The notes beneath the pieces are model-generated. The model searched no databases, was not told the origin of the DNA, and saw only the letters and a program-made list of their open reading frames with translations. Both the position numbers and the translations under genes were made by a program. 64,000 nucleotides of DNA from Candidatus Omnitrophota bacterium. Lineage in GTDB: Bacteria; Omnitrophota; Gorgyraeia; Gygaellales; Profunditerraquicolaceae. Numbering within the stretch: the first letter of the stretch is position 1; every line of letters begins with the position of its first letter. Positions 7,837 to 64,000 of the stretch are shown one piece after another. The stretch lies in contig JAGVER010000010.1 of NCBI GenBank assembly GCA_020058085.1, forward strand, positions 1,549-65,548, in the 5' to 3' direction.

Positions 7837-8808
7837 TTAGACTAGGCCTACCTTGAGTAAATCCTGAACATCTAATAATCCTACTGGGTGCTTATTTTTA
7901 TCTACCACCGGAAGCTCATCAATACGCTTTTCCTGTAAGATGCGCATTGCCTCGGCGGCTAACATCTCCTGACAAATTACAGTTGGATTCTTAGTCATTA
8001 TCTCTTTAATCTTGCACTGCGGCAACATATTGTCTATTTCAAAGTTGCGGCGTAAATCTCCATCAGTGAATATTCCGGTTAATCTTCCGGTTTTATCGAC
8101 AACTGTAGCCGAACCTGCGCGGGCCTGAGTAATCTTCAATAGCACACCTGGGACCTTTTCATCCTCCTTAACTATTGGATTGGCCTTGCCTGTGCGCATA
8201 ATATCTCCCACACTTAAAAGCAGGCGCCTGCCTAACGCTCCACCCGGATGGAAAAAAGCGAAATCTTTCTCTTTGAACCCTTTTAGCTCCAGCAAACATA
8301 CAGCTAAAGCATCACTCATCGCTAATGCTGCTGTAGTAGAAGCCGTAGGAGCTAAGCCTAAAGGACAGGCCTCCTTTTTTACCGATATATCTAAGACTAC
8401 GTCGCTATATTTACTTAAAATCGACTTAGTATTACCGGTTAAAGCAATCACCTTACAACCCATCTTTTTTAAGAGAGGCAAGAGCTTCTTCATCTCTTCG
8501 GTTGAACCGCTATTTGAAAGTATAATCACTACATCTTCTGAAGTAACTTTTCCTAAATCTCCATGGATCGCCTCGGCAGTATGCAGGAATAAACTCGGGG
8601 TTCCGGTTGAAGCCAATGTAGCGGAAAATTTCTGGGCGATTATACCAGTCTTACCCATTCCACTTACTATAGCCCTTCCCTTGGTTTTTAAAATCAAATT
8701 TACGGCAAGTTTAAAGTTATTATTGATACGGCTCTTTAAATCTTTAATCGCATCCGCCTCAATATCTAAAACTTCTTTTCCTCTTTTTAATATATTTATC
8801 TTTTTCAT
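7837..8808 (-). CDS. kdsD: Arabinose-5-phosphate isomerase (SIS plus tandem CBS)
   Basis: 323 aa. SIS motif VSGMGKTGIIAQKFSATLASTG, SNSGSTEE, C-terminal CBS pair. Confidence 0.92.
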   Translation of the reverse strand: MKKINILKRGKEVLDIEADAIKDLKSRINNNFKLAVNLILKTKGRAIVSGMGKTGIIAQKFSATLASTGTPSLFLHTAEAIHGDLGKVTSEDVVIILSNSGSTEEMKKLLPLLKKMGCKVIALTGNTKSILSKYSDVVLDISVKKEACPLGLAPTASTTAALAMSDALAVCLLELKGFKEKDFAFFHPGGALGRRLLLSVGDIMRTGKANPIVKEDEKVPGVLLKITQARAGSATVVDKTGRLTGIFTDGDLRRNFEIDNMLPQCKIKEIMTKNPTVICQEMLAAEAMRILQEKRIDELPVVDKNKHPVGLLDVQDLLKVGLV

Positions 8809-10362: not shown

Positions 10363-11376
10363 TTAACCTAACCTCTCTCTTAATTCAACCTGATTAGTAG
10401 TGGCTGTCCCTACTTTACCAACGACAATTCCGGCAGCATAATTAGCAATATGCGCCGCCTCTAATTTGCTCGCGCCAACAGCTAAACTTAAGGCAAATGT
10501 GGCGATTACCGTATCCCCGGCTCCGGAAACATCAAATACCTCTTGTGCGACCGTCGGGATATGCGTAATCTTGCCCCCTTTTTCAAATAACTTCATCCCC
10601 TGCTCTCCCAAGGTAACTAATAAAGACTCCAGCTCCAGATACTCCAATATCTGCTTCCCCGCTGATTCAATATCACTATCCGAAAAAAGCTTCTCGCTAT
10701 CAAATTTAAATTTATTTTTCTTATCCTTAATCTTTAAGTTTCTTACCGCGTTCTCCAATTCTTTGCGATTTGGGGTAATTGAGGTAACTCCGCGATAATA
10801 TTGAAAATGATCTTCTTTAGGGTCAACGAGAATAATTTTTTTGTGAGTCTGGGCAAGTAGAATTAGCCCTTCGAGCAACTGGGCGTTAATCACGCCTTTG
10901 CCGTAATCCTCAATAATTATAACATCGAAACTTTTGATATTATCTTTAATAAAATTAAATATTTCCCGCGTTGTCTCTTTCGGTAAAGGTTCAGCATGCT
11001 CCCAGTCAACCCTAACTACCTGCTGATGCCCGGCGATAATACGCGTCTTAACCGTAGTGCATCTCTCTGGCATTACCGTTACGCCTTTGGTGCTGATATT
11101 TTCTTTTTTGAGCGCATTCAGAAGCAGATCGGCATTCTTGTCGCTTCCGATAACTCCGGCTAAACAAACTTTAGCCCCGTAGGAACTGATGTTATTCGCT
11201 ACATTAGCCGCTCCGCCCGGTATATGGGTCATCCTATTCGCCCAGACTACAGGCACAGGCGCTTCAGGAGAGATACGCTCTACCTTCCCCCAAATATATT
11301 CATCAAGGATTAAATCTCCGATGACCAAAACCCGCGCCTGATTAAGCTTTTTGATTATCTCTCTGAATTGCTTCAC
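10363..11376 (-). CDS. hldA: D-beta-D-heptose 7-phosphate kinase (RfaE domain I only, pfkB family)
   Basis: 337 aa. VLVIGDLILDEY...GGAANVA N-terminus, and the C-terminal pfkB signature DVSGAGDTVIA. No adenylyltransferase domain. GTG start preceded by GGAAGGAAAGG. Confidence 0.85.
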   Translation of the reverse strand: MKQFREIIKKLNQARVLVIGDLILDEYIWGKVERISPEAPVPVVWANRMTHIPGGAANVANNISSYGAKVCLAGVIGSDKNADLLLNALKKENISTKGVTVMPERCTTVKTRIIAGHQQVVRVDWEHAEPLPKETTREIFNFIKDNIKSFDVIIIEDYGKGVINAQLLEGLILLAQTHKKIILVDPKEDHFQYYRGVTSITPNRKELENAVRNLKIKDKKNKFKFDSEKLFSDSDIESAGKQILEYLELESLLVTLGEQGMKLFEKGGKITHIPTVAQEVFDVSGAGDTVIATFALSLAVGASKLEAAHIANYAAGIVVGKVGTATTNQVELRERLG

Positions 11377-11419
11377 TAGACCTTTCCTTCCTAATTAATT
11401 CTAACCGTGGGAAGTTATA

Positions 11420-11447
11420 ATTTTAGCATAATCCAGCATTAAATCAA
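11420..11447 (-). promoter_or_regulatory. Candidate sigma70-type promoter for hldA and the kds/lpt operon
   Basis: Minus strand reads TTGATT - 16 nt - TAAAAT (complements at 11442-11447 and 11420-11425). Confidence 0.3.
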
Positions 11448-11506
11448 CTATATATTTTAGATATGTTTTCACTTAGAATGCTTCTTTTAAGCTTCAAATA
11501 TTTATG

Positions 11507-11535
11507 TTAGATTTTACCTCTAGTTAGTCTATTAT
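11507..11535 (+). promoter_or_regulatory. Candidate promoter for the ORF6N gene
   Basis: TTAGAT (11507-11512) - 17 nt - TATTAT (11530-11535). AAAGGAG SD at about 11541-11547. Confidence 0.25.
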
Positions 11536-11556
11536 AGTAGAAAGGAGAAAATAAGA

Positions 11557-12105
11557 ATGTCTAACACAATCGCCGTGGAAGTTATAGCTACAAGGATTCT
11601 AGAATTAAGGGATAAGAAAGTAATACTAGATCGAGATTTAGCTAAGCTTTATGGAGTTTCAGCTAAGGTATTGAATCAGGCTGTAAAAAGGAATATGAAA
11701 CGTTTCCCGGAGGATTTTATGTTCCAGTTGTCGTGGGAAGAAGTAGCATCTTTAAGGTCACAAATTGTGACCTTAAACAATCCAAAACCAGAGACCTCTC
11801 AAAGGGGTAGGCATATTAAATATCTACCCTATGCTTTCACAGAATACGGTGTAGCTATGCTCTCAAGTGTATTAAACAGCGAAAGAGCTATACAAGTCAA
11901 TATCCTTATTATGCGAGCCTTTACCAAACTAAAAGAAGTTCTTTTAACTCATAAAGAACTAACCACAAAAATTGAGGATCTTGAAAAGAAATATGCCTCG
12001 CACGATGAGGCTATAAGAACGATATTTGAAGCAATTAAGCAACTTCTTGAACCACCACCGGTAAAACAAAAACCGCCTATCGGATTTCATACTTACGATG
12101 AGTAA
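11557..12105 (+). CDS. ORF6N (KilA-N-related) DNA-binding domain protein
   Basis: 182 aa. ILELRDKKVILDRDLAKLYGVSAKVLNQAVKRNMKRFPEDFMFQL...YAFTEYGVAMLSSVLNSERAIQVNILIMRAF is the characteristic ORF6N pattern seen in phage and mobile-element-associated proteins. One of only two plus-strand genes. Confidence 0.8.
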   Translation: MSNTIAVEVIATRILELRDKKVILDRDLAKLYGVSAKVLNQAVKRNMKRFPEDFMFQLSWEEVASLRSQIVTLNNPKPETSQRGRHIKYLPYAFTEYGVAMLSSVLNSERAIQVNILIMRAFTKLKEVLLTHKELTTKIEDLEKKYASHDEAIRTIFEAIKQLLEPPPVKQKPPIGFHTYDE

Positions 12106-12117
12106 AATAAAGTGACA

Positions 12118-12176
12118 GTTCTAACAAAACTTATTACGCAGCAATAGCTTATCTAGAAACGGTCTGGGGCTTTAAA
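12118..12176. repeat. Direct repeat copy 1 (~59 bp), degenerate GGTTCTA-type palindromic element overlapping the stop of 12149..12610
   Basis: GTTCTAACAAAACTTATTACGCAGCAATAGCTTATCTAGAAACGGTCTGGGGCTTTA matches 14805-14863 with 6 mismatches. The internal arms GTTCTA / TAGAAAC are inverted. Confidence 0.75.
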
Positions 12177-12610
12177 ACATTCTCAACCTCTTGAATATTT
12201 TCAGGACTGGCATCCCAACGCCCAAAAGAGCCTCTATATGTAGTCCGATATTTCATTTGAGAATCTTTGTCGAGAAATAGAATCCACCTTGAACCTTTTT
12301 CAGGCATTAAATCTTCAGTAAATCTCCACCCGGCTTCCGCTATGCATGCGGAACCATCGCTAAAATCATACCGTACATCCAAGACTTCAGGGACATTTGC
12401 ACCTTTTAATAAACGAATTATTTTATACTTCCCAATTGGCCCACTAAAATAATCGACTTTACCCTCCAACTTATACCCCGTATATTCAACAATAGCTATA
12501 AGTGGAGAGTTGAAAGCTTGGTCTTTTGTAGGTTCGAACATAGGTTTGGCAAAAACAGACGAGAAGCTTATAAAACAGAGTAAACTCATAATAACCAGTA
12601 ATTTTTTCAT
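12149..12610 (-). CDS. Secreted hypothetical protein
   Basis: Start moved to MKKLLVIMSLLCFISFSSVFA (GAGAAAGGA SD). Signal peptide present; no recognisable family. Confidence 0.6.
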   Translation of the reverse strand: MKKLLVIMSLLCFISFSSVFAKPMFEPTKDQAFNSPLIAIVEYTGYKLEGKVDYFSGPIGKYKIIRLLKGANVPEVLDVRYDFSDGSACIAEAGWRFTEDLMPEKGSRWILFLDKDSQMKYRTTYRGSFGRWDASPENIQEVENVLKPQTVSR

Positions 12611-12624
12611 AATTCCTTTCTCAA

Positions 12625-12671
12625 TGAAAAAACTCGGGCATTCCGGAGGAGATAACATCTGTCCCCGGAAT
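12625..12671 (-). terminator. Candidate intrinsic terminator after 12671..13339
   Basis: ATTCCGG / CCGGAAT stem (12665-12671 and 12640-12646). On the minus strand it is followed, after 7 nt, by U6 (A-run 12627-12632 on plus). The 5' arm touches the TAA stop. Confidence 0.3.
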
Positions 12672-13339
12672 TACTTATTTGCTTCAAAATCCTTTAGTTC
12701 TAACTTGGCCTTTTCAATAAAATCATCCACTACCAAGCGAAGAGTCTTTTTCCAGTTAGCTTCATTCGCTACCTGACAGAGATTCCGCGATGAAGCAGTT
12801 ATAATTATAGGTTTGTCTCTCTTAGGCACGGTTACAGTGTTTGTAGTAGTTATCTCGCTCTTTAAAGATAAAGTCCAGAATCCTGGCATAAACCAAGCCC
12901 AGAATTTGTCAATGGAGATATCCATTATAATAGCATCGGATTTAGCTTCCTTATCGTTGTTAACCACATCGTAACCAAGAGAGTATAAAGAATTACGCGT
13001 AGCTTCATAAATAACACTTTGTACGCTTTGGCCTTCTTCAAGTATGATATCCCCTAATGCCTTGCCATAGGTATTACGCTTTCTTGCTATAGCCCTACTC
13101 TTCATTTCCGGGGTAATTTTATTTAATTCCCCAAAACCTAATGACGGAATATCAGCGCTTTTAGGCTTTTCTTGAAATATCCGGCTATCTGTAATTGAAC
13201 GAATATACACCTGTTTACCATTAGAATTAGTTAAAATTCCAGCAGGTACTTGTATACCAAGATAACCCCGGTTTGTAGCACAACCAGTTAAATTAATAAT
13301 AACTACGAGCAGAACAAAAAAATTAAGTACCTTCTTCAT
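12671..13339 (-). CDS. Lipoprotein, possibly YajG/LptE-fold-like
   Basis: Start at MKKVLNFFVLLVVIINLTGCATN (AAAGGAG SD). Lipobox LTGC. The alternating helix/strand pattern resembles small YajG-like lipoproteins, but this is a weak call. Confidence 0.6.
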   Translation of the reverse strand: MKKVLNFFVLLVVIINLTGCATNRGYLGIQVPAGILTNSNGKQVYIRSITDSRIFQEKPKSADIPSLGFGELNKITPEMKSRAIARKRNTYGKALGDIILEEGQSVQSVIYEATRNSLYSLGYDVVNNDKEAKSDAIIMDISIDKFWAWFMPGFWTLSLKSEITTTNTVTVPKRDKPIIITASSRNLCQVANEANWKKTLRLVVDDFIEKAKLELKDFEANK

Positions 13340-13393
13340 CTCTTCTCCTTTCATTCTATCTAACCAAATAATTAAGTACTCTGTCCCCGGAAA

Positions 13394-14119
13394 TTAATTA
13401 ATCTTCTTGCTCATTTCTTCTACTAAATTACGATGAATTTCCAATGCTGCATAGTTAGGATCGTTTTTGTTCAAATATTTTTCTGCTTCCGAGATATAGA
13501 AAAGTGCCTGTTTCCAATCTCTCATATTTGTATAAACTGATCCAATGTTAGCGAGAGCTTGCCAACTATCAGGCATTACCTCTAAACACTTCTTGGCAGA
13601 CTGAATCGATAATTTGTAGAAACTATCATCTTTATTCCTATTATATGCTTCTATCCCCTTTTCAAGGTAATTGGAGCTTAAACTAAAATTAATCTCTGCT
13701 ATAAGGTTTCTATCATCTGTCTTTTGAAGAGCCAACTTACATAGTTCAATGGCCTTATCAAAATCATGGGTAGAATAATAATAAGTAACTTTTTTAAAAA
13801 TTTCCTCAACCGTAGATTCGGAATTAATTTCTATGTTATTTTTCATATCGGGTAGTTTTGCGTATTCTGGATTCAGGATTTCAATTGTAACGGATTTGCC
13901 CGAAGCGTATACTGGTTTACCATCGATGCTCTCAACCTCATCAAAGAAATATGTAAGCGGAACACCTAGAAAGTCTATTTTTATATACTTATCTGTCTTT
14001 TCAATTAACTTTCCTTCTACGCTCTTTCCTGATTTAAGAATTATCGTTTCGGCGAAAGTTTTAATTGGAAAACATAAAAATACTACCGCTATTAAGATAA
14101 TCGATCTTCTTTTATTCAT
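13394..14119 (-). CDS. Secreted TPR-repeat protein
   Basis: Start at MNKRRSIILIAVVFLCFPIKTFA (GGAGGAG SD). N-terminal beta-rich segment IILKSGKSVEGKLIEKTDKYIKIDF, then TPR-like helices. Confidence 0.65.
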   Translation of the reverse strand: MNKRRSIILIAVVFLCFPIKTFAETIILKSGKSVEGKLIEKTDKYIKIDFLGVPLTYFFDEVESIDGKPVYASGKSVTIEILNPEYAKLPDMKNNIEINSESTVEEIFKKVTYYYSTHDFDKAIELCKLALQKTDDRNLIAEINFSLSSNYLEKGIEAYNRNKDDSFYKLSIQSAKKCLEVMPDSWQALANIGSVYTNMRDWKQALFYISEAEKYLNKNDPNYAALEIHRNLVEEMSKKIN

Positions 14120-14184
14120 TTCTCCTCCTAGAGTAACCGAGACGCTTTCGCCAAATGAACACACTAGAATAAGTTATAAAAACA

Positions 14185-14709
14185 TTATTTTCTACCCAGT
14201 TTCTCGGTTACGGCTTTGGCCATATTTTCATTAAGCTTTCGCGCAGCACTTATCCATTCGCGGCCGGAGAATACACCGTCATCTTTGGTTGTAATCGCAT
14301 TCCTTCCATCCGCAAAAAGTTCATAGTGAATTTTAAGCGATACACCACCTGCCCCATAGCCTACAAGCATACGCGCGGCCTTACTTCCAGCGCGGTATTC
14401 AATTATTTTTACGGTAAGCAGATAGTCATTTGACTGGGGTTTAAAATCTCTGCGTTTTTCAATAAGCTTAGCCTGATAGCCAACTTTTGCATATCGAGCA
14501 AATACTCTTACTAAGTCATCATCCATCCAATCGGAGAGCTGCGTTTGCGCTTTGGCTTGACGAGCTTCAAGTTTTTCGTTTACACCATCGTCGAACAAAA
14601 TACAGATAGTAGTCTGGGCATTTTTCTCAACGGCATTTGCCGAATTAACAAAACCGATAGTAAGTGCTGCAACAATAAATACGGTTACCGCAATCAATTG
14701 TCTCTTCAT
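14185..14709 (-). CDS. Secreted protein, DUF4410-like
   Basis: 174 aa. Signal peptide ending SANA. The YRAGSKAARMLVGYGAGG motif resembles DUF4410 lipoprotein-family proteins. Confidence 0.55.
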   Translation of the reverse strand: MKRQLIAVTVFIVAALTIGFVNSANAVEKNAQTTICILFDDGVNEKLEARQAKAQTQLSDWMDDDLVRVFARYAKVGYQAKLIEKRRDFKPQSNDYLLTVKIIEYRAGSKAARMLVGYGAGGVSLKIHYELFADGRNAITTKDDGVFSGREWISAARKLNENMAKAVTEKLGRK

Positions 14710-14804
14710 ACTTTCCTCCTTTTTGCTGTTTCAACACTAAAAAACTTGTAACGCTTCTATGCTTCTTCTAAAAACCCCAACTCGCCAATATCTGTTAGGG
14801 GGCG

Positions 14805-14863
14805 GTTCTAACAAAACTTATTACACATCAATAACTTATCTAGAAACGGCCTGATGCTTTACA
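14805..14863. repeat. Direct repeat copy 2 (~59 bp) with a remnant of a gene 3' end
   Basis: GTTCTAACAAAACTTATTACACATCAATAACTTATCTAGAAACGGCCTGATGCTTTA. The minus strand reads ...VKHQAVSR-stop, versus ...LKPQTVSR-stop in copy 1, but there is no ORF upstream. It is preceded by GGGGGCG, which resembles the GGGGACG arm of the 17242 and 63431 palindromes. Confidence 0.75.
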
Positions 14864-14938
14864 ATATAAGAGATTACAAAAACCACATTCTAATATGTGC
14901 CCAAAAGTGCCTATCCTACAAGAATAATCGAACGTGTT

Positions 14939-15916
14939 TCAAAAATCCGAAGAGAATGGTATTTTTACTTTCTTAAAAAGTTCTCTAAAATCTTGATGGT
15001 CTTTTATTAATTTTACTCTGCTCAATAAATCTTCATCTTGAGCTAATGTGTACAGATTGAAAATCCGAGCAAATATAATAAAAAACGCAACTATATACTG
15101 CGTTCCACACATTATCTCTGGTTTAAAAGAATTTTCTTTGTCAGGAAAAATCGGAAAAGTAATTTTATTCAAAAAGCTGTCACTGATATTTGCCTTACAG
15201 CCTATATACCACGCATCCGGATGAGACTTAGATGAAAATATACCGTAATTCAGTTTGTAATGAAGATTGCCTAATCCAACAGTATTCGCTTTTTGTTTTA
15301 TACTTGTATATTTGTTTTTATTAATCAACCCAAACGACCAATCTCCGGTATAGACATATTGAATCTTCCCGCTTTGCTTATCTTTTTTCCTAAGTTCGAA
15401 TTTCCTCCTATATTTGAGGTAGTTTTTATATAAACTATCATAGTCTTTCCCAAGCCTATTTTTGAGGTCTTTAATAGTATCTTTTGGTTTTGAATCCGGA
15501 TATAGATAAATTAAGCGCATATATCGCGATACGTCAGCCATCGCTACAAATTGATTTAAGCGACGTTTAGTATATTTGTGGAGCATAAAAGAGAGATTAA
15601 CTAACAACTCGTAAATACGTCTTATCAACATAGTTGCCGCAGTCGTTTGACCATTCCAAGCAATGTGTATAGAGGAAACATAACAAGAAAACGCTTCACA
15701 AAATAAGGTAAAGACAACTGCTTCTTTTAATTCTCCAGCTGCGCCTGTTTTATAAGTAAAGTTGTTACCTGCTATAAGTTTTTTATTTTCTAAATAATTA
15801 GAAAGCAACAATAATCCTTCCTTGGCTCCTTCAAAAGCTTCACTTTCTTCTTTTGGCCATTTAACAGAAGTATCTGAATTTAAAAGCTTACCCTCGAGAT
15901 AGCTCTTTATGGACAT
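14939..15916 (-). CDS. Hypothetical cytoplasmic protein (orphan)
   Basis: 325 aa, very AT-rich. No signal peptide and no motif I can assign. Confidence 0.55.
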   Translation of the reverse strand: MSIKSYLEGKLLNSDTSVKWPKEESEAFEGAKEGLLLLSNYLENKKLIAGNNFTYKTGAAGELKEAVVFTLFCEAFSCYVSSIHIAWNGQTTAATMLIRRIYELLVNLSFMLHKYTKRRLNQFVAMADVSRYMRLIYLYPDSKPKDTIKDLKNRLGKDYDSLYKNYLKYRRKFELRKKDKQSGKIQYVYTGDWSFGLINKNKYTSIKQKANTVGLGNLHYKLNYGIFSSKSHPDAWYIGCKANISDSFLNKITFPIFPDKENSFKPEIMCGTQYIVAFFIIFARIFNLYTLAQDEDLLSRVKLIKDHQDFRELFKKVKIPFSSDF

Positions 15917-15994
15917 ATTTTCATGCTTTCATGTATTATCAATAAATACGAACACCTCATTCTTCAGTAAATTTTATTACTGTAATGCTAACCA

Positions 15995-16206
15995 AAACTT
16001 CAAGATGTCTCTGGCAAGGTTCGAGCGAGTGTCGATTTTAGCCAATGGAGCTTGAGTATTGAGGGAATCCGCCACAATCATTGGCGGACGGCAAAACTGT
16101 TTGAGCGCCGAGGTAGAGACTGAGGCGCGAGTTGTTTTGCCGCCGAAATGCGAAAGATCATTGGCGTTAAAAAATCGACCTTGAGCGAGAAGTTTGACAG
16201 AGACAT
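15995..16206. repeat. ~200-nt nested perfect-palindrome element (candidate structured ncRNA or MITE-like element)
   Basis: Starts right after the TAA at 16207-16209. On the minus strand the stacked closing helices are ATGTCTCTG/CAGAGACAT, CAAGG/CCTTG, GTCGATTTT/AAAATCGAC and GCCAATG/CATTGGC. They enclose GCAAAAC..GCGCC..GGCGC..GTTTTGC and CCGCCA..TGGCGG. All pairs are Watson-Crick. Confidence 0.55.
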
Positions 16207-18252
16207 TTAATCTTTTAAGACCGAGTCGGCGCAAGAGACTACGTCTTCAACGCTAATCGCCTTTAAGCAGGCGAATTGTTTTTTACAATTATGTGCCAAG
16301 CATTCGATGCATTCGATGCATCCGACGTCTTTGTGCAAGACTTTATCTCTTAGGCCTACCGGCCCCCAACGCTTCGGGCTTAAACCTCTCTGTTTCCTGC
16401 CAAATATAGAGATTACAGGCGTACCTACTCCTGAAGCAATATGCACCGGACCAGAATCATTAGAAATAAACAAACTACATCTTTTTAGTAAACTGGCTAA
16501 CTGGGATACGGAAGTTTTTCCTGCTAGAGAGACTACAGAACTGCGCATATTTTTAATTACGTTTTGAGCAATTAATAAGTCTTTTGACCCAGAGACGACT
16601 AAAATTTTAAAGCCGTATTTTTGTGCTAACTCATCCGCCACTTCGGCAAAGCGTTCATGATGCCAAACCTTGGAAGGACAACTTGCTGCGGGATTTATGG
16701 CGAGTAATTTATCCTGCGCCTTTATACCTTCTTGTTTAAATAAATCATCAACCCATTCTTCGGATTCTTTCTTTATGGGCATAAAAAGATTTTTATCTTT
16801 AACATCGATTTTTAAATATCTTAATAAATCCAGATTATATTCCAGCTCATGCTTCTCCCCACGCTCTTTAGTATGGGGAATTCTGTCAGTAAGCAAAAAA
16901 CCTAATTTTCTATCGTAACCAACCCTTTTAGGTATGCCAGCGAGAAAACTTAATAAATGCGCGCGGTTTGTCGGATGTAAAACTATCGCCAGATCAAATC
17001 TTTTTTTCTCTAAATTACGGGCGAACTTTATCGACCGCGGCCAACTCTTATGTTTTCCTTCTTTATCATAAATAATAACTTCATCCAGATAAGGATTCCC
17101 TTCAACTATATCCTTAGCATAAGGAGAGACCACCATAGCAATAAAAGCATGAGGATATTTCTCGCGCACTGCTTTTATCACCGGCGTAGATAGAAGTACA
17201 TCTCCGATCCGATCGGTACGCACGATAAGAATACGTTTAAAAATAATGGGGACGGTTCTATTTTTCTTAAAAATAGAACCGTCCCCATTATTCCCATTAT
17301 TCAGCATCTCTCTTGATTGCCTTAGCACATCCTCTACCTTTATCAATCGCAGACAATCCAGAGTTCCCAGTTTACACTGCGCCTTTTTACATGGCCGACA
17401 ATGAATCTCTTTTTTTACTATGCTACTTTTTTTTGACCAGGGGCCATACTTACTATCATCAGTTATGCCAAATATAGCTACTACCGGTATATCCAGATAA
17501 CTTGCTATATGCATCGTGGCACTGTCATTACTAATTACTAAGGATGCCTTACTTAATAAGCTAGCCAACTCCCTTAGGTTAGTCTTGGCGCCTAGGTCTA
17601 AACAAGAGCCCTTTAAACTTTCATTAATATATTTATTTATCGGCGCATCTTCCTTATCTCCTACTAATACAACCTTAACTCCAAACTCTTCTTGCAATTT
17701 AAAAATCAGCTCGGCAAACTTCTCTTTAGGCCATCTTTTAGTATGACTGCGCGCTCCGGCAGATATGACAATAAAATTATCCTTATTACTGATCCCACCG
17801 TCTTTTAATAAACGCGTTATATACTCTGCGTCATTAGCACCTATATAAAAACTGCTCTTGGGCAAAGGATTATCACTCTTATATCCTGCGAGATAAAGAT
17901 GCCTCGCCTTCATATGTCTTATCTCTTTGGGTATTTTTGTAAGGCAAGGATGTTTGCTGTAGGCCTTAAGGATAAATCCTAAGAATGAATCCTTTAAATC
18001 TACAACCAGATCGAAATTATTCTTTATTAAATCCCTGAACAATTTAAGTTTTTCTTTAAATCCTGTGCGTTTATTATAAATAATAAATTTATCTACAGAA
18101 GGATTATCCGCGAATATATCTTTGGCTCTTTCGCTGGCTAAAACCGTAATATGGCTCTGGGGAAAGTCGGCCTTGAGAGAATCTAGGGCCGGAAGCGTAA
18201 GAATCACATCCCCAATATTGCTTAAAGTAATTAATAAAATCTTTTTTTTCAT
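16207..18252 (-). CDS. Tandem GT9 (heptosyltransferase-like) fusion protein; the two modules are joined by a palindrome-encoded linker
   Basis: 681 aa. The N module starts MKKKILLITLSNIGDVILTLPAL and has SNDSATMHIA. The C module starts KRILIVRTDRIGDVLLSTP and has SNDSGPVHIA. The linker NNGNNGDGSIFKKNRTVPIIF is encoded by 17242-17301. Confidence 0.8.
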   Translation of the reverse strand: MKKKILLITLSNIGDVILTLPALDSLKADFPQSHITVLASERAKDIFADNPSVDKFIIYNKRTGFKEKLKLFRDLIKNNFDLVVDLKDSFLGFILKAYSKHPCLTKIPKEIRHMKARHLYLAGYKSDNPLPKSSFYIGANDAEYITRLLKDGGISNKDNFIVISAGARSHTKRWPKEKFAELIFKLQEEFGVKVVLVGDKEDAPINKYINESLKGSCLDLGAKTNLRELASLLSKASLVISNDSATMHIASYLDIPVVAIFGITDDSKYGPWSKKSSIVKKEIHCRPCKKAQCKLGTLDCLRLIKVEDVLRQSREMLNNGNNGDGSIFKKNRTVPIIFKRILIVRTDRIGDVLLSTPVIKAVREKYPHAFIAMVVSPYAKDIVEGNPYLDEVIIYDKEGKHKSWPRSIKFARNLEKKRFDLAIVLHPTNRAHLLSFLAGIPKRVGYDRKLGFLLTDRIPHTKERGEKHELEYNLDLLRYLKIDVKDKNLFMPIKKESEEWVDDLFKQEGIKAQDKLLAINPAASCPSKVWHHERFAEVADELAQKYGFKILVVSGSKDLLIAQNVIKNMRSSVVSLAGKTSVSQLASLLKRCSLFISNDSGPVHIASGVGTPVISIFGRKQRGLSPKRWGPVGLRDKVLHKDVGCIECIECLAHNCKKQFACLKAISVEDVVSCADSVLKD
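17242..17292. repeat. 51-bp perfect palindrome (GGTTCTA-type element) lying in frame inside the GT9-GT9 gene
   Basis: AATAATGGGGACGGTTCTATTTTT-CTT-AAAAATAGAACCGTCCCCATTATT. The same 18-19 nt arms occur at 63431-63488. The adjacent 9-nt duplication CCCATTATT lies at 17293-17301. Confidence 0.9.
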
Positions 18253-42132: not shown

Positions 42133-42174
42133 TATTTAATCCCTCCCCCCCTATCCGCTAATTAAAATATATTA

Positions 42175-42251
42175 GATTAGCGGGTGACGAGGACTGATTC
42201 CGAGCGAGCGTGATGCGAGCGAGGAACAGCCCTCGGCAGGACCCGCTAATC
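42175..42251 (-). terminator. Long imperfect hairpin overlapping the yjbQ stop; terminator candidate
   Basis: 11-bp closing stem GATTAGCGGGT (42175-42185) / ACCCGCTAATC (42241-42251), with inner CGAGG/CCTCG pairing. On the minus strand it is followed by UCUAAUAUAUUUUAAUU. A third CCGCTAA copy lies at 42145-42151. Confidence 0.4.
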
Positions 42252-53304: not shown

Positions 53305-53323
53305 AATATTCTCAATTTATCTC

Positions 53324-53650
53324 TCAAACCTTTATCATTATCAAAAGCATCTTGAAGCGCTCTATAGCCTTCAAAGAATGCGGCTTATTAGCGGGCATAA
53401 TAATGGTTTCGCCGGCGCTTAGGTAATGTTGCTTACCGGCAATTTTAATTTCTACCTTGCCATCAAAGATATAAACTAAAGCATCGAATGATGCAGTATG
53501 TTCGCTTAAACCCTGACCTTTATCAAAGGCAAAAATCGTAACTGTCCCTTTTTCTTTCCTAATAACTTCTTTACTAACAACAGAATCGTCTTGATAATCT
53601 ACTAGGCTAATCAGGCTCCTAGCTTCTTCGACAATATTGATCATAGCCAC
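53324..53650 (-). CDS. Cupin domain protein
   Basis: 108 aa. GLSEHTASFDALVYIFDGKVEIKIAG...GETIIMPANKPHSL cupin motifs. Confidence 0.75.
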   Translation of the reverse strand: MAMINIVEEARSLISLVDYQDDSVVSKEVIRKEKGTVTIFAFDKGQGLSEHTASFDALVYIFDGKVEIKIAGKQHYLSAGETIIMPANKPHSLKAIERFKMLLIMIKV

Positions 53651-53724
53651 TCCCAGTAACTAATATTCTCATATAATTGTTTCCACAATCATCTTTTAAT
53701 TAAATCTATTGCGTAATTCCAGGA

Positions 53725-53985
53725 CTACGAATAAACTTCTTTCCTATGGCTTATCCGTAAAATATAAATCAAAATTTCCTTCTCCGCTATCTTGTAGATT
53801 ACGCGATAATCTCCCCAACGATATCGCCAATAACCTTGAAAATCGCCTTTTAATGACTTACCTAGACCCTTAGGATCTTTAGCAAGATAGGTTTCAATAC
53901 GATTAAGGATCTTCTTAGCTATGGATTTATCGAGTTTCTTAAGATCCTCTTCGATAGAATCAAGATAAGAAACTTTATAAACCAA
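53725..53985 (-). CDS. Type II toxin, RelE/ParE family
   Basis: 86 aa. WRYRWGDYRVIYKI...ILIYILRISHRKEVY is the RelE/ParE fold pattern. 11-nt overlap with the upstream antitoxin gene. Confidence 0.85.
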   Translation of the reverse strand: MVYKVSYLDSIEEDLKKLDKSIAKKILNRIETYLAKDPKGLGKSLKGDFQGYWRYRWGDYRVIYKIAEKEILIYILRISHRKEVYS

Positions 53986-54193
53986 GCCTATTCCTCAACT
54001 CTTTGGCAGAAATAATTTTAGATTTGGGATCGCTGAAACGATCCTTGGCAATCTGTGCATCGGCATAATCTTCCAAATAGTGCGCCAAAGCATCAGTAAC
54101 ATAAAAAGTTTCGCTTCGACGCGTAGCTTTTGCCAATGAGGTTAGCCTATTAACTAATCCAACAGGTAAACGAAATGCTTTTAATAAGGTCAT
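53975..54193 (-). CDS. Type II antitoxin (ribbon-helix-helix type)
   Basis: 72 aa. The N-terminal beta-strand FRLPVGLVNRL, followed by helices, is typical of RHH. Precedes and overlaps the toxin gene. Confidence 0.75.
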   Translation of the reverse strand: MTLLKAFRLPVGLVNRLTSLAKATRRSETFYVTDALAHYLEDYADAQIAKDRFSDPKSKIISAKELRNRLGL

Positions 54194-54218
54194 GTTTTCA
54201 ACCTCCTCTCACAATAAG

Positions 54219-54247
54219 AGTATAACACTGTTATACAAGTATTGCAA
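54219..54247 (-). promoter_or_regulatory. Promoter with embedded palindromic operator for the TA operon
   Basis: Minus strand TTGCAA (54242-54247) - 17 nt - TATACT (54219-54224). The spacer contains the inverted repeat GTATAAC-A-G-TGTTATAC (54220-54236). GAGGAGG SD downstream. Confidence 0.55.
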
Positions 54248-54264
54248 GATTATTTTTTACATCC

Positions 54265-63419: not shown

Positions 63420-63430
63420 TCGAAAATAAT

Positions 63431-63488
63431 GGGGACGGTTCTATTTTTCCGCCTTTTTAGGCTTCTATAGAAAAATAGAACCGTCCCC
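63431..63488 (-). terminator. 19-bp-stem hairpin (GGTTCTA-type palindromic element) acting as an intrinsic terminator
   Basis: GGGGACGGTTCTATTTTTC (63431-63449) / GAAAAATAGAACCGTCCCC (63470-63488) with a 20-nt loop. It begins 7 nt after the stop of 63495..64000. AUUAUUUU follows on the minus strand and UUGUUUUU on the plus strand. Confidence 0.65.
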
Positions 63489-63494
63489 TTGTTT

Positions 63495-64000
63495 TTAACG
63501 CACGTCAATAAGGTCGAAGGTGTAATCTGTGATGCCAGAGGGTGAAACTAAAACTAGGCCGATCATCTTAGTCCCTTGATTCTTATAGAGAGCCTTAAAT
63601 TCAGATTGCTTTGTGTTCGGTTTAAAATCCCCGAGGCTTCCTGACCAGAGATATTGCAGCTCGACATTAAAACATCCACTTGAGGCGAGATAAACGGAAG
63701 ATTTTATCTCCGCTTCTTCACCTGATTTAGGATAGTAGATATTTGATCTTAAGTCAATCTTACTCATATCAAAGTTGGCGGATGATTCTTTTAAAGAAAC
63801 ATCCATAAAAGTCTTCAAATTGTGCTCCATGGCTGCGCCTTCTTCTGATTCCTTTAGCCTCTCCTGGGCCATCTGAAGGGTATCCGTAGGATACCCTTCA
63901 GATTTTTCAATTAATTTCTTATAGTATCCTTTAGCAGGCGCCAGATCTCCCTCCCATTGCTTAAGCAGGCCCAATTGGTATAAACTTGCTAAAGAATGCG
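63495..64000 (-). CDS. C-terminal part of a larger (TPR-like N-terminal) protein; 5' end outside the window
   Basis: The ORF-track start at 63974 is TTG, and the frame stays open upstream to base 64000 (..HSLASLYQLGLLKQWEGDLAPAKGYYKKLIE). The C-terminal 110 aa are beta-rich and of unknown family. Confidence 0.6.
   Translation of the reverse strand, partial: HSLASLYQLGLLKQWEGDLAPAKGYYKKLIEKSEGYPTDTLQMAQERLKESEEGAAMEHNLKTFMDVSLKESSANFDMSKIDLRSNIYYPKSGEEAEIKSSVYLASSGCFNVELQYLWSGSLGDFKPNTKQSEFKALYKNQGTKMIGLVLVSPSGITDYTFDLIDVR

Follow-up and report, generated by a model that had tools for sequence, protein, structure and literature searches.

Correia/NEMIS, ERIC/IRU, RPE and BIME elements are small non-coding intergenic repeats, often located just after genes, which can provide stop codons, form hairpins upon transcription and are markers of variable regions, and REP/BIME, ERIC and Correia elements have been reported to act in cis on mRNA or transcription. 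The attC sites of integrons are ~57-141 nt long, carry the core sites RYYYAAC (R'') and GTTRRRY (R') at the base of the folded stem, and occur in cassette arrays next to intI. Their folding strand is antisense to the upstream ORF, at or over its stop codon, and they lie near variable genes. Among the structured RNAs, 6S, Y RNA and SRP RNA are processed stable RNAs with paired 5' and 3' ends, HEARO accompanies IscB, and the msr-msd ncRNA of retrons is closed by a1/a2 repeats and lies directly upstream of the reverse transcriptase gene. In IS200-like HUH chemistry, no target-site duplication is expected. Among the closest described systems are REPINs, which are REP doublets that form hairpins and are mobilised by RAYT transposases (Bertels & Rainey 2011, PMC3116915; bioRxiv 10.1101/2021.07.10.451892). 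REP sequences have a conserved GTAG or CGTC tetranucleotide at one end (PMC3733652). The cognate RAYT, an IS200-like Y1 transposase, is encoded in the genome that carries the REPs and usually has REPs on its flanks.

The element described here is one copy of a ~215-nt family and lies in a 64-kb stretch of Omnitrophota DNA (the window). Similar to REPINs, it is non-autonomous, extragenic and multi-copy and carries no gene for a protein. As single-stranded DNA or RNA, the entire unit is predicted to form one long imperfect hairpin; it clusters and nests with other repeats, and it persists and diversifies within lineages. In contrast to REPINs, it is about twice as long and is not a doublet of inverted REPs but an asymmetric three-way junction with two unlike hairpins. 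Both of its arms read GAGCGA in the 5'->3' direction on the same strand and are not reverse complements, and its ends are without the GTAG or CGTC tag. Furthermore, it is ~80% conserved between genomes in which proteins are only 55-60% identical, and no RAYT-type (IS200-like Y1) family was found among the 25 most frequent families listed for 144 neighbouring proteins and for the 60 window proteins. REPINs and the hairpin ends of IS200/IS605 show a behaviour similar to the one proposed here, but the element is much larger, asymmetric and conserved over a greater evolutionary distance.

Position and fold of the copy in the window

The element lies between the 3' end of a GT9 gene and an accessory segment. 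The features of the locus and the parts of the fold are as follows.

11377-16004, no strand: accessory segment, reported as 4.8 kb, absent from the closest relative (L001)
14939-15916, minus strand: DUF5677 gene (Pfam DUF5677, E = 2.4e-12), first gene of the accessory segment
16003-16208, plus strand: whole element, supported by the nhmmer family profile and the fold; functional strand
16003-16013, plus strand: 5' arm of helix P1, AGAUGUCUCUG, pairs with 16198-16208, with compensatory changes
16005-16013 / 16198-16206: closing helix as first named, ATGTCTCTG/CAGAGACAT
16023-16028, plus strand: GAGCGA, 5' strand of the non-canonical helix (G.A, A.G, G-C, C-G, G.A, A.G)
16031-16039, plus strand: 5' arm of P2, GUCGAUUUU, pairs with 16171-16179
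16041-16047, plus strand: 5' arm of P3, GCCAAUG, pairs with 16159-16165 (GCCAATG/CATTGGC as DNA)
16049-16064, plus strand: 5' strand of P4/P5, AGCUUGAGUAUUGAGG, pairs with 16143-16158, two tandem G.A pairs included
16068-16088, plus strand: hairpin A of the three-way junction, UCCGCCA...UGGCGGA, arms 16068-16074 / 16082-16088
16089-16142, plus strand: hairpin B of the three-way junction, CGGCAAAAC...GUUUUGCCG, with covariation and G.A columns
16089-16097 / 16134-16142: stem of hairpin B, CGGCAAAAC/GTTTTGCCG, enclosing GCGCC/GGCGC
16143-16158, plus strand: 3' strand of P4/P5, CCGAAAUGCGAAAGAU, supported by family pairing and G.A columns
16159-16165, plus strand: 3' arm of P3, CAUUGGC
16171-16179, plus strand: 3' arm of P2, AAAAUCGAC; the helix is GTCGATTTT/AAAATCGAC
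16183-16188, plus strand: GAGCGA, 3' strand of the non-canonical helix, within the 19-base block used to find the family, AAAATCGACC(T)TGAGCGAGA
16198-16208, plus strand: 3' arm of P1, CAGAGACAUUU, last two bases within the GT9 stop codon of the opposite strand
16207-18252, minus strand: fused double GT9 heptosyltransferase gene, 681 aa (Pfam Glyco_transf_9, E = 3.4e-83)

An earlier note on this DNA had described a nested palindrome after the GT9 stop, and all the helices that it named, including a CAAGG/CCTTG helix, were found where it had placed them. The last two pairs of the closing stem extend into the TAA stop codon of the GT9 gene (16207-16209, minus strand). The family profile matched 16005-16207 on the plus strand with an E value of 3.8e-49, and this was the sole copy in the 64-kb window. 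The G+C content of the element was 0.50 compared to ~0.32 on the DUF5677 side and ~0.44-0.47 in the adjoining 3' end of the GT9 gene, in agreement with the GC-richness noticed before. An exact lookup of the window GT9 protein found it not on record.

The stability of the fold was evaluated on both strands against shuffled sequences, as the earlier note had proposed. The plus strand of 16003-16208 folded at -93.9 kcal/mol (z = -7.65) and the minus strand at -69.9 kcal/mol (z = -5.10), and none of the 200 shuffles was as low in either case. These results indicated that the folding of the window element is far beyond chance. The full fold includes G.U pairs and tandem G.A pairs, contrary to the view that every pair is Watson-Crick. 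The two direct repeats reported inside the element do occur: ATCATTGGCG is present twice, the 3' half of hairpin A duplicating the 3' strand of P3 in the window copy, but the two occurrences of GAGCGAG turned out to be the two strands of the tandem-G.A helix. Short ORFs overlap the element. The 85-aa frame on the minus strand was already listed, and the inventory is corrected here to 85 aa and 42 aa on the minus strand and 41 aa and 48 aa on the plus strand. The two minus-strand frames, which were the two scanned, gave no Pfam match. A scan of both strands found no terminator-like site at the element, the sole match lying at 16257-16274 inside the GT9 ORF. No U-tract follows the stem of the window element on either strand, and the 3' flank of the family is A-rich. 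An intrinsic terminator was rejected on these grounds.

The element is located at the GT9-proximal border of the accessory segment, yet it is independent of the segment. The genes of the segment encode an ORF6N protein, two unannotated proteins, and TPR, DUF4410 and DUF5677 proteins. The DUF5677 gene, with its start at a distance of 89 nt from the element's 5' end, is no more than a neighbour outside the element and does not recur at other loci. In L001, the orthologue of window 10363-11376 follows 90 nt after the GT9 gene. The element does border a segment that is absent in L001, and the earlier note had called it the right edge of an accessory island, but in L110 and L009 a copy occupies the same GT9 site without the island.

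This position would be explained by a recombination or attachment site for accessory genes, acting as a folded single strand like the attC bottom strand or the CTX phage attP. Other copies also border variable regions (L097, L130), and at L099 and L134 the downstream flank is common and the upstream flanks are unrelated. Moreover, as in attC, the folded strand runs antisense to the upstream ORF and extends into the stop codon of that ORF; action as a strand-specific folded single strand may apply to both, and both keep their structure better than the sequence at the ends of the stem. We nevertheless regard such a function as very improbable. Besides the island-free copies of L110 and L009, most copies lie between housekeeping genes without accessory DNA, no second copy or fragment was found at the other end of the island, and an integrase was found neither in the window island nor among the 25 families most frequent in the neighbourhood of the copies. 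The ends AATGAAT...ATTCATT do not match RYYYAAC/GTTRRRY, the length of 185-270 nt exceeds the attC range, the interior sequence is strongly conserved, and there are no cassette arrays. An integron attC site proper was rejected on account of the missing core sites, the length, the single copy in the 64-kb window and the absence of an integrase from the neighbour families listed.

The 144 flanking proteins of the copies matched 147 Pfam families, mostly housekeeping, and no transposase or reverse transcriptase was present among the 25 most frequent of them. No recurrent linked protein or partner gene was found beside the copies, and no pair of element arms enclosing a gene was found. A retron ncRNA was rejected, given the absence of reverse transcriptase from these 25 families and a window neighbour that is DUF5677.

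The family, its covariation and the strand that folds

The family was found by a scan of metagenome contigs with the 19-base block AAAATCGACC(N0-1)TGAGCGAGA, which returned at least 120 stretches. Among the stretches listed, most continue with AAAnnGACAGnnnCATT and have GTCGATTTT ~150 nt upstream. A search for further copies had been recommended, and the nhmmer profile recovered 93 near-full copies in 1.06 Mb. Since the sample was picked by the exact 19-base block, it under-represents the diversity and decay of the family. The copies are ~215 nt long (range 185-270 nt) and 74-88% identical where the flanking proteins are 52-90% identical. Their consensus ends are (A)AATGAATCTGG ... CAGnTTCATT(T/A), and the P1 variants AATGAATCTG, AATGCCTCTG, TTGCAGCTTGG and AATCTCCCTATTGT are all found across the family. 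These results indicated an intergenic, non-coding family dispersed in Omnitrophota and close relatives.

The Rfam check suggested in the earlier note was also run. At the gathering score of Rfam 15, the window and 15 loci gave no match to the element, only tRNAs and chance matches, and at E ≤ 10 there was no match on the element in the window, L009 and 13 other members. Accordingly, 6S, SRP, RNase P, tmRNA, Y RNA, HEARO/omega RNA, raiA and OLE were rejected for want of a covariance-model match. The element shares a multi-helix covarying fold, conserved internal and GNRA loops and an occurrence in uncultivated lineages with HEARO/omega RNA, OLE, raiA, ROOL and GOLLD. It differs from them in its several copies per genome and exact boundaries, and from HEARO also in having no associated gene. 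In IMG/VR, the 3' block and a first version of the 5' block each returned a single chance match (L031, an HNH coding region, and L032), and a second version of the 5' block returned none; blastn against phages and plasmids found no match. A limited literature search (Omnitrophota ncRNA, structured RNA, repeats, MITEs and sequence strings) returned no description of the family, which is apparently undescribed so far.

For alignment A1, which comprises 49 copies, RNAalifold predicted 52 pairs, and double changes were seen at 38 of these. A 71-pair structure was 94.9% paired across the 49 copies compared to 37-47% with the partners slid, and double changes occurred at 47 pairs (386 cells); none of the 500 shuffles reached any of these measures. 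The members have a common fold which consists of a closing rod (P1, the GAGCGA x GAGCGA helix and P2-P5), a three-way junction and two hairpins. Compensatory changes were found at 10/10 pairs of P1 and 7/7 pairs of hairpin A, whose sequence is variable in the family. The G.A/A.G columns of the GAGCGA helix were present in 47-49 of the 49 copies, the outermost G.A in 32. Most pairs of P2 are invariant (49/49 copies), two of them (38-240 and 39-239) being Watson-Crick in 42/49, and one subfamily carries GGAGAUUUU at the 5' arm, which leads to tandem G.A. P3 was paired in 99.7% of the cells, with double changes at three pairs. In P4/P5, columns 61.192 (G.A) and 62.191 (A.G) were kept in 46/49 copies, and the tandem G.A of P5 is replaced by Watson-Crick pairs in other copies. 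Hairpin B has a base with conserved UGAGC/GCGAG tandem G.A and a variable tip, and its subtype GGCAAAAC is common to the window, L040 and the second copy of L052.

A chance palindrome or a decayed coding remnant of no significance, the latter considered already in the earlier note, would fit the short ORFs that overlap the element. However, the z scores on both strands, more than 90 homologous copies with compensatory changes, indels (including the variable hairpins) that break every reading frame in the family alignment, and the two scanned ORFs without a Pfam match leave it with practically no probability. The family alignment refuted it.

The functional strand, which had been thought not inferable, is the plus strand of the window, as the G.U and tandem G.A pairs in the fold favour it. 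G.U pairs outnumbered A.C pairs in the family alignment by 159 to 21, and the plus strand folded more stably in 64/65 copies with RNA parameters and in 65/65 with DNA parameters. GAGC and GCGA occurred 4.7 and 5.5 times per copy on the plus strand compared to 0.14 and 0.35 times on the minus strand, and the G.A columns were kept in 46-49 of the 49 copies. In addition, GNRA loops made up 23 of 102 predicted tetraloops on the plus strand and 1 of 94 on the minus strand. By GC skew as a proxy of replication direction, the folding strand was on the C-rich strand in 26 cases and on the other in 16, a bias which is not significant (p = 0.16) and gives a replication-coupled model no support.

The orientation relative to the neighbouring genes bears on a function in cis. 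Most copies sit between co-directional genes, and the 3' end of the element was ≤5 nt from a convergent stop codon in 11/44 cases, with a distance of 0 in the window. Together with the folding of both strands far better than shuffles, this could suggest an operon element that acts in cis after the stop, such as a 3'-end stabiliser, an RNase III site, a terminator or an insulator, and the element resembles Correia/NEMIS, ERIC/IRU, RPE and BIME in being small, non-coding, intergenic and hairpin-forming. Between co-directional genes, however, the folding strand, on which selection acts, was antisense in 24 cases and sense in 9, so the operon transcript would usually contain the less stable fold, in which C.U and A.C mismatches occur. 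Moreover, a U-tract after the stem is missing on both strands, and a simple stabiliser needs neither a conserved three-way junction nor invariant G.A helices. We therefore consider an operon element improbable. The same antisense bias makes a simple model of RNA expression by read-through awkward.

Boundaries, dispersal and turnover of the copies

The copies are dispersed and have diverse flanking genes. One 379-kb contig carries three of them, and a 149-kb contig and a Hainich contig carry two each. Copy pairs with 95-99.5% identity were found at loci with unrelated flanks, and the identity between near-identical copies ends at the base of the closing stem (..A|AATG...CATT|A..). Duplicated copies bring along zero flanking sequence and hence no promoter. 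Target-site duplications of 2-8 nt were searched at all boundary offsets and found in at most 3/64 copies, which is the chance level; this fits IS200-like HUH chemistry. A conserved terminal sequence is absent, P1 covarying instead. The earlier note had considered an ncRNA and a DNA-level element, either MITE-like or a recombination site, equally likely. The element is indeed structured and non-coding and behaves as a dispersed mobile repeat, but a MITE in the strict sense does not hold. In contrast to bacterial MITEs, it has no target-site duplication, a covarying terminal stem in place of a conserved inverted repeat, strand-specific non-canonical motifs and a conserved junction, and no parent insertion sequence was seen.

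The occupancy of sites varies from site to site between close relatives. At least four sites syntenic with the window are filled in relatives and empty in the window, and the element site of the window is empty in L001, a comparison confounded by the island. There was no clean pair of a filled and an empty site with alignable flanks, the variable region differing between the window and L097. At L073 the copy at the GT9 site is in reverse orientation. Truncated, internally deleted, chimeric and nested copies exist (L150, L148, L009 and L076/L124/L149). Furthermore, 28 copies were near contig ends compared to 16.8 expected (P ~0.0008), and 10 contigs terminate inside a copy or ≤5 nt from one. 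The family behaves as a recently copied dispersed unit that leaves no target duplication and has no conserved ends or linked enzyme.

Several observations would also suit a family of trans-acting structured ncRNA genes, e.g., an RNP scaffold or a protein-sequestering RNA, of which the copies are paralogous genes. Such an RNA would come from the plus strand and be trimmed to the paired P1 ends, like the ends of 6S, Y RNA and SRP RNA. In favour of it are the strong covariation, the invariant non-canonical helices and junction bases, the enrichment of GNRA loops solely on the plus strand, and the conservation of copies beyond that of proteins. With its three-way junction, conserved unpaired bases and GNRA loops, the element is so complex that a functional RNA accounts for it better than the known ends of single-stranded-DNA transposons do. 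A contig with two copies can moreover harbour two subtypes that diverged long ago and differ by compensatory changes (L052, L130), which also fits maintained paralogous RNA genes. On the other hand, the duplicated copies lack flanks and so a promoter, and no position-specific promoter or terminator signal was found at a fixed distance around the copies, with sigma-70-like scores equal to those of shuffles. The truncated, chimeric and nested copies, the differences in occupancy between close relatives, the two orientations at one site and the lack of a recurrent partner gene also argue against RNA genes, which we hold to be rather unlikely, processing to the P1 ends included.

Proposed mode of spread and significance

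On balance, the element is probably mobile but non-autonomous and active as a folded single strand, REPIN-like in its behaviour though not one of the REPINs. The unit of spread would be exactly the closed fold. The folded single strand may be recognised in trans via the invariant G.A-rich helices and the junction, after which the element would insert, by copying or by movement, into intergenic sites of A/T-rich sequence, typically just after a stop codon and without target duplication. We infer that the family spread by active transposition and that a trans-acting mobilising enzyme exists; among the loci examined, neither a trans-acting enzyme nor an autonomous parent element was found. We slightly prefer single-stranded DNA over RNA as the active form. 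The window copy would be a passenger at the 3' end of the GT9 gene, and its reverse complement would be the first stretch transcribed past the GT9 stop.

A bolder proposal, to which we give only tentative credence, is that the family represents a novel class of structured RNAs in bacteria, the copies in the genome being exactly as long as the mature RNA with its paired ends. If so, one option would be a SINE-like retro-copied element of processed-RNA size with a reverse transcriptase in trans. The other would be an RNA-protein machine specific to Omnitrophota, with the family as its RNA subunit and rods rich in tandem G.A pairs as the structures it recognises. In that case, the same machinery would also use the two rod-like repeat families described below as substrates.

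In Omnitrophota, a widespread, uncultivated phylum, the literature searches returned no description of non-coding elements. With 47 covarying pairs, near-invariant tandem G.A helices and a conserved three-way junction, the fold is among the better-supported new ones obtained from sequence alone. If it is REPIN-like, the family would extend long-lived intragenomic replicators to a new phylum with a far more elaborate architecture, and would point to a novel enzyme recognising folded strands; if RNA, it would represent a new class of large structured RNAs. For the annotation and binning of Omnitrophota genomes, the family matters because its copies break assemblies, are located at stop codons and flank variable regions.

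Two other rod-like repeat families cluster and nest with the element. In L110, the GC-rich neighbouring repeat (family ii) favours the strand opposite to that of the element, whereas a location on the same strand would suggest co-transcription.

The element at the GT9 stop codon

The window carries one copy of the palindromic repeat, which adjoins a GT9 gene and lies next to an accessory segment:

16003-16208, functional strand +: whole element
16207-18252, - strand: fused GT9 heptosyltransferase, 681 aa (Pfam E = 3.4e-83)
11377-16004: accessory segment, 4.8-kb, absent from the closest relative, locus L001
11557-12105, + strand: ORF6N-domain protein of the accessory segment

The GT9 stop codon TAA (16207-16209) overlaps the closing stem of the element over its two terminal pairs; read as its reverse complement, the element would open the GT9 3' untranslated region. 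Each helix that an earlier note had listed was present at its coordinates, and so were its two internal direct repeats. The reported rise in G+C was also found, with 0.50 in the element compared to ~0.32 on the DUF5677 side and ~0.44-0.47 at the 3' end of the GT9 gene. From its list of reading frames the 85-aa frame stood and the rest did not: the frames overlapping the element were two on the - strand (85 and 42 aa), for which Pfam gave no match, and two on the + strand (41 and 48 aa). Both strands were folded and compared with shuffles as that note had proposed, and both were far outside chance and unequal, at -93.9 kcal/mol (z = -7.65) for the + strand and -69.9 (z = -5.10) for the - strand. 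The + strand fold is clearly stronger, and the statement that every pair is Watson-Crick and the strand cannot be inferred was therefore incorrect.

By its GT9 protein the window belongs to Candidatus Omnitrophota. The best genome match of the GT9 protein was in L001 (83% identical), and eight more Omnitrophota-labelled MAGs encoded it at 52-66% identity. In L001, where the window's own element site is empty, the orthologue of window 10363-11376 (PfkB-family kinase, 91% identical) comes 90 nt after the GT9 gene, so the segment 11377-16004 is an insertion in the window. It codes for ORF6N, TPR, DUF4410 and DUF5677 proteins and two unannotated proteins, and its five genes other than the ORF6N gene, including the TPR, DUF4410 and DUF5677 genes, are on the - strand. 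Neither an integrase within the segment nor a repeat at its far end was detected. The element had been said to mark the right edge of this island. It does lie at the GT9-proximal border, but the tie to the island did not hold, as a homologous element occupies the same GT9 site in loci L009 (GT9 58% identical) and L110 (62%), which lack the island. The element is thus independent of the accessory island. Apart from its border position, no evidence linked it to any role for the island or the GT9 gene. In locus L073, a copy downstream of GT9 was in reversed orientation.

A dispersed family with a conserved fold

A search pattern was taken from two blocks common to the window and L009. The metagenome scan with AAAATCGACC(N0-1)TGAGCGAGA gave at least 120 matching stretches, and about 100 of those listed continued into the family 3' arm, with GTCGATTTT 119-216 nt upstream. 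The family sample thus comes from listed stretches that share an exact 19-base block; it yielded 75 distinct full-length copies of 185-270 nt, and the 49 copies with a length of ≤ 232 nt formed the alignment A1. The profile search with A1 found 93 near-full copies in 1.06 Mb of collected sequence and exactly one in the window, which bore out the suggestion that further copies might exist. Rfam 15 gave no match at gathering score in the window or in 15 loci, and none over the element at E ≤ 10 in the window, L009 and 13 other members. No copies were found in IMG/VR, GenBank phages or PLSDB plasmids, and full-text literature searches did not find a description of the family.

The family consensus was AAUGAAUCUGGCGnnUUUUCGAGCGAAUGUCGAUUUUAGCCAAUGGAGCUUGAGCAUUGAGGGAAUCCC[hairpin A]GGGAyGGCGAwGCUGUUUGAGC[tip of hairpin B]GCGAGUUCnGCAGCCrCCGAAAUGCGAAAGAyCAUUGGCGUU[optional hairpin]AAAAAAUCGACCUGAGCGAGAAAAnnGnCAGnUUCAUU. 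It folds into a long rod that leads to a three-way junction, from which hairpin A, which is variable, and the longer hairpin B extend. Inward from the closing stem P1, which covaries and is not conserved in sequence, the rod consists of a short covarying helix, UUUUC/GAAAA, GAGCGA x GAGCGA, P2 (GUCGAUUUU/AAAAUCGAC), P3 and P4/P5. The GAGCGA x GAGCGA helix is symmetric (G.A, A.G, G-C, C-G, G.A, A.G), and two further tandem G.A pairs are located in P4/P5. The repeat CTCGCTC, described as direct, is indeed present twice and represents the two strands of this GAGCGA helix. The tandem G.A columns were nearly invariant (46-49 of 49 copies); Watson-Crick pairs take the place of one of them in other copies, and those positions are therefore structurally paired.

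RNAalifold on A1 predicted 52 pairs, with compensatory double changes in 38. A 71-pair structure had 94.9% of its cells paired, compared to 37-47% when the 3' partners were slid by 1-3 columns, and showed both-side changes in 47 pairs (386 cells). None of 500 column shuffles attained any of the five measures. The 3' half of hairpin A (ATCATTGGCG; 16077-16086) repeats the P3 3' strand (16157-16166) in the window copy alone, so GCCAATG (16041-16047) could pair with either. Since hairpin A differs among other members, the family does not share this alternative pairing.

The paired columns contained 159 G.U against 21 A.C and 63 G.A against 14 C.U. RNA parameters made the + strand the more stable one in 64 of 65 copies (mean -102.1 vs -89.4), and DNA parameters did so in all 65. 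Each copy had on average 4.7 GAGC and 5.5 GCGA on the + strand, compared to 0.14 and 0.35 on the - strand; among predicted tetraloops, GNRA accounted for 23 of 102 on the former and 1 of 94 on the latter. Of 65 copies, 28 contained GCGAAGC and none its complement. The functional strand is thereby fixed as +. These features are compatible with RNA and with single-stranded DNA alike: DNA hairpins too are stabilised by sheared G.A pairs and by GNA/GNNA loops, d(GCGAAGC) being the classic case. It is secure that the family is new, has a strand-specific conserved fold, and is multi-copy and dispersed.

Placement, dispersal and the proposed mobile unit

The copies lie between housekeeping genes of many kinds, and 144 flanking proteins fell into 147 Pfam families. 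No transposase, integrase or reverse transcriptase was among the 25 most frequent of these. An ORF6N protein neighboured copies three times. Between co-directional genes the folding strand was antisense in 24 and sense in 9 cases, which were not phylogenetically independent (binomial p = 0.014). In 11 of 44 cases a convergent gene had its stop codon ≤ 5 nt from the 3' end of the element, as it does in the window, and the terminal TCATTA of the element gives TAA/TGA on the opposite strand. Flanks were T-rich 5' and A-rich 3'. No promoter or terminator signal was found at a fixed distance from the copies, with upstream sigma-70-like scores equal to those of shuffles (6.10 vs 5.90), and orientation relative to local GC skew was not significant (26 vs 16).

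Three copies were found on a 379-kb contig, two on a 149-kb contig and two on one Hainich contig. The expected number of copies within 300 nt of contig ends was 16.8 and the observed number 28 (P about 0.0008); 10 contigs ended inside a copy or ≤ 5 nt from one, as is typical of a repeat in an assembly. At least 9 copy pairs were 95-99.5% identical with unrelated flanks, and their identity ended at the base of P1 (..A|AATG...CATT|A..). At least 14 carrier contigs had a window-like gene order (55-90% amino-acid identity), and four sites filled in syntenic carriers were empty in the window. Same-site copies were 74-88% identical whether the flanking proteins were 52% or 92% identical, and two copies on one contig can belong to different subtypes with compensatory differences. 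Variant copies were also found:

L150: truncated copy
L148: internally deleted copy
L009: chimeric copy, interior swapped for another palindrome
L076, L124, L149: nested copies, within the loop of another palindrome family

The mobile unit would be the fold itself. The main rival is a trans-acting structured RNA family, a less likely but still plausible reading in view of the three-way junction and GNRA loops and of how deeply the family is conserved. A mobile fold is favoured over ordinary paralogous RNA genes because new copies come without flank and hence without a promoter, because the unit ends exactly at the stem base, and because the family includes fragments, chimeras and nested copies. 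A retro-copied RNA would be compatible with both readings. The 'MITE-like' label proposed earlier did not hold: the element is not a DDE-type MITE, with a covarying P1 and no target-site duplication of 2-8 nt at any boundary offset. The family resembles REPIN/RAYT and IS200/IS605 ends in having no target-site duplication, no conserved terminal sequence, a strand-specific fold, clustering with palindromic repeats and long persistence (PMC3116915; bioRxiv 10.1101/2021.07.10.451892). Membership in REPIN/RAYT failed, as the element is not a REP doublet and has no GTAG/CGTC tag. An attC site, a terminator and a retron ncRNA were each rejected as its identity. We know of no RAYT for this family.

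Neighbouring palindromes and variable regions

Two other palindromic families accompany the main element:

Second, rod-like, ends TTAGCGG(G/A)T...A(C/T)CCGCTAA: window 42170-42250 (- strand); L009 8318-8482; L110 5068-5237
Third, GCGTGCATTAGAAAATTTTTGGC ... GCCAAAAATTTTCAGCACGC, plus related GCACACGGCGAAAATCTTCGTGCC: L076 480-520 and 725-770; L124; L149; L110 5474-5520; L009 interior 8080-8250

The second family is ~75 nt in the window and GC-rich and ~170 nt in relatives, is spaced 15-25 nt from the main element at ~20 loci, and had no Rfam match. In L110, its more stable strand was opposite to that of the main element. The third family is absent from the window. The main element sits inside its loop at the three nested loci, and the palindrome replacing the L009 interior is similar to it.

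A perfect 24+24-nt palindrome (AATAATGGGGACGGTTCTATTTTT/AAAAATAGAACCGTCCCCATTATT; window 17242-17292) lies in frame within the fused GT9 ORF, in the linker that joins its two GT9 domains. A second, intergenic copy at 63423-63496 has arms 89% complementary, and the flanks of family members L061, L074 and L139 contain similar GGGAC...GTCCC palindromes. The GT9-ORF palindrome looks like a short palindromic repeat able to sit within a gene. In the 3' part of the same ORF, GCATTCGAT is duplicated in tandem (16300-16317).

Two copies in L071 (1394-1605 and 2740-2951) have mirrored flanks within a large inverted duplication of the contig, which probably arose as an artefact of assembly or amplification at this strongly folding repeat. 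In L130 (1140-2179), two diverged, inverted copies with 5' ends inward surround a 123-aa ORF that had no Pfam match, and the pair is placed between two genes adjacent in the window. Window 53305-54264 is a variable region flanked by two conserved genes:

53324-53650: small cupin protein
53725-53985: ParE-like toxin
53975-54193: probable partner ORF of the toxin

Relatives carry very different genes in this region, often with copies of the element (L097, L070, L093, L142).
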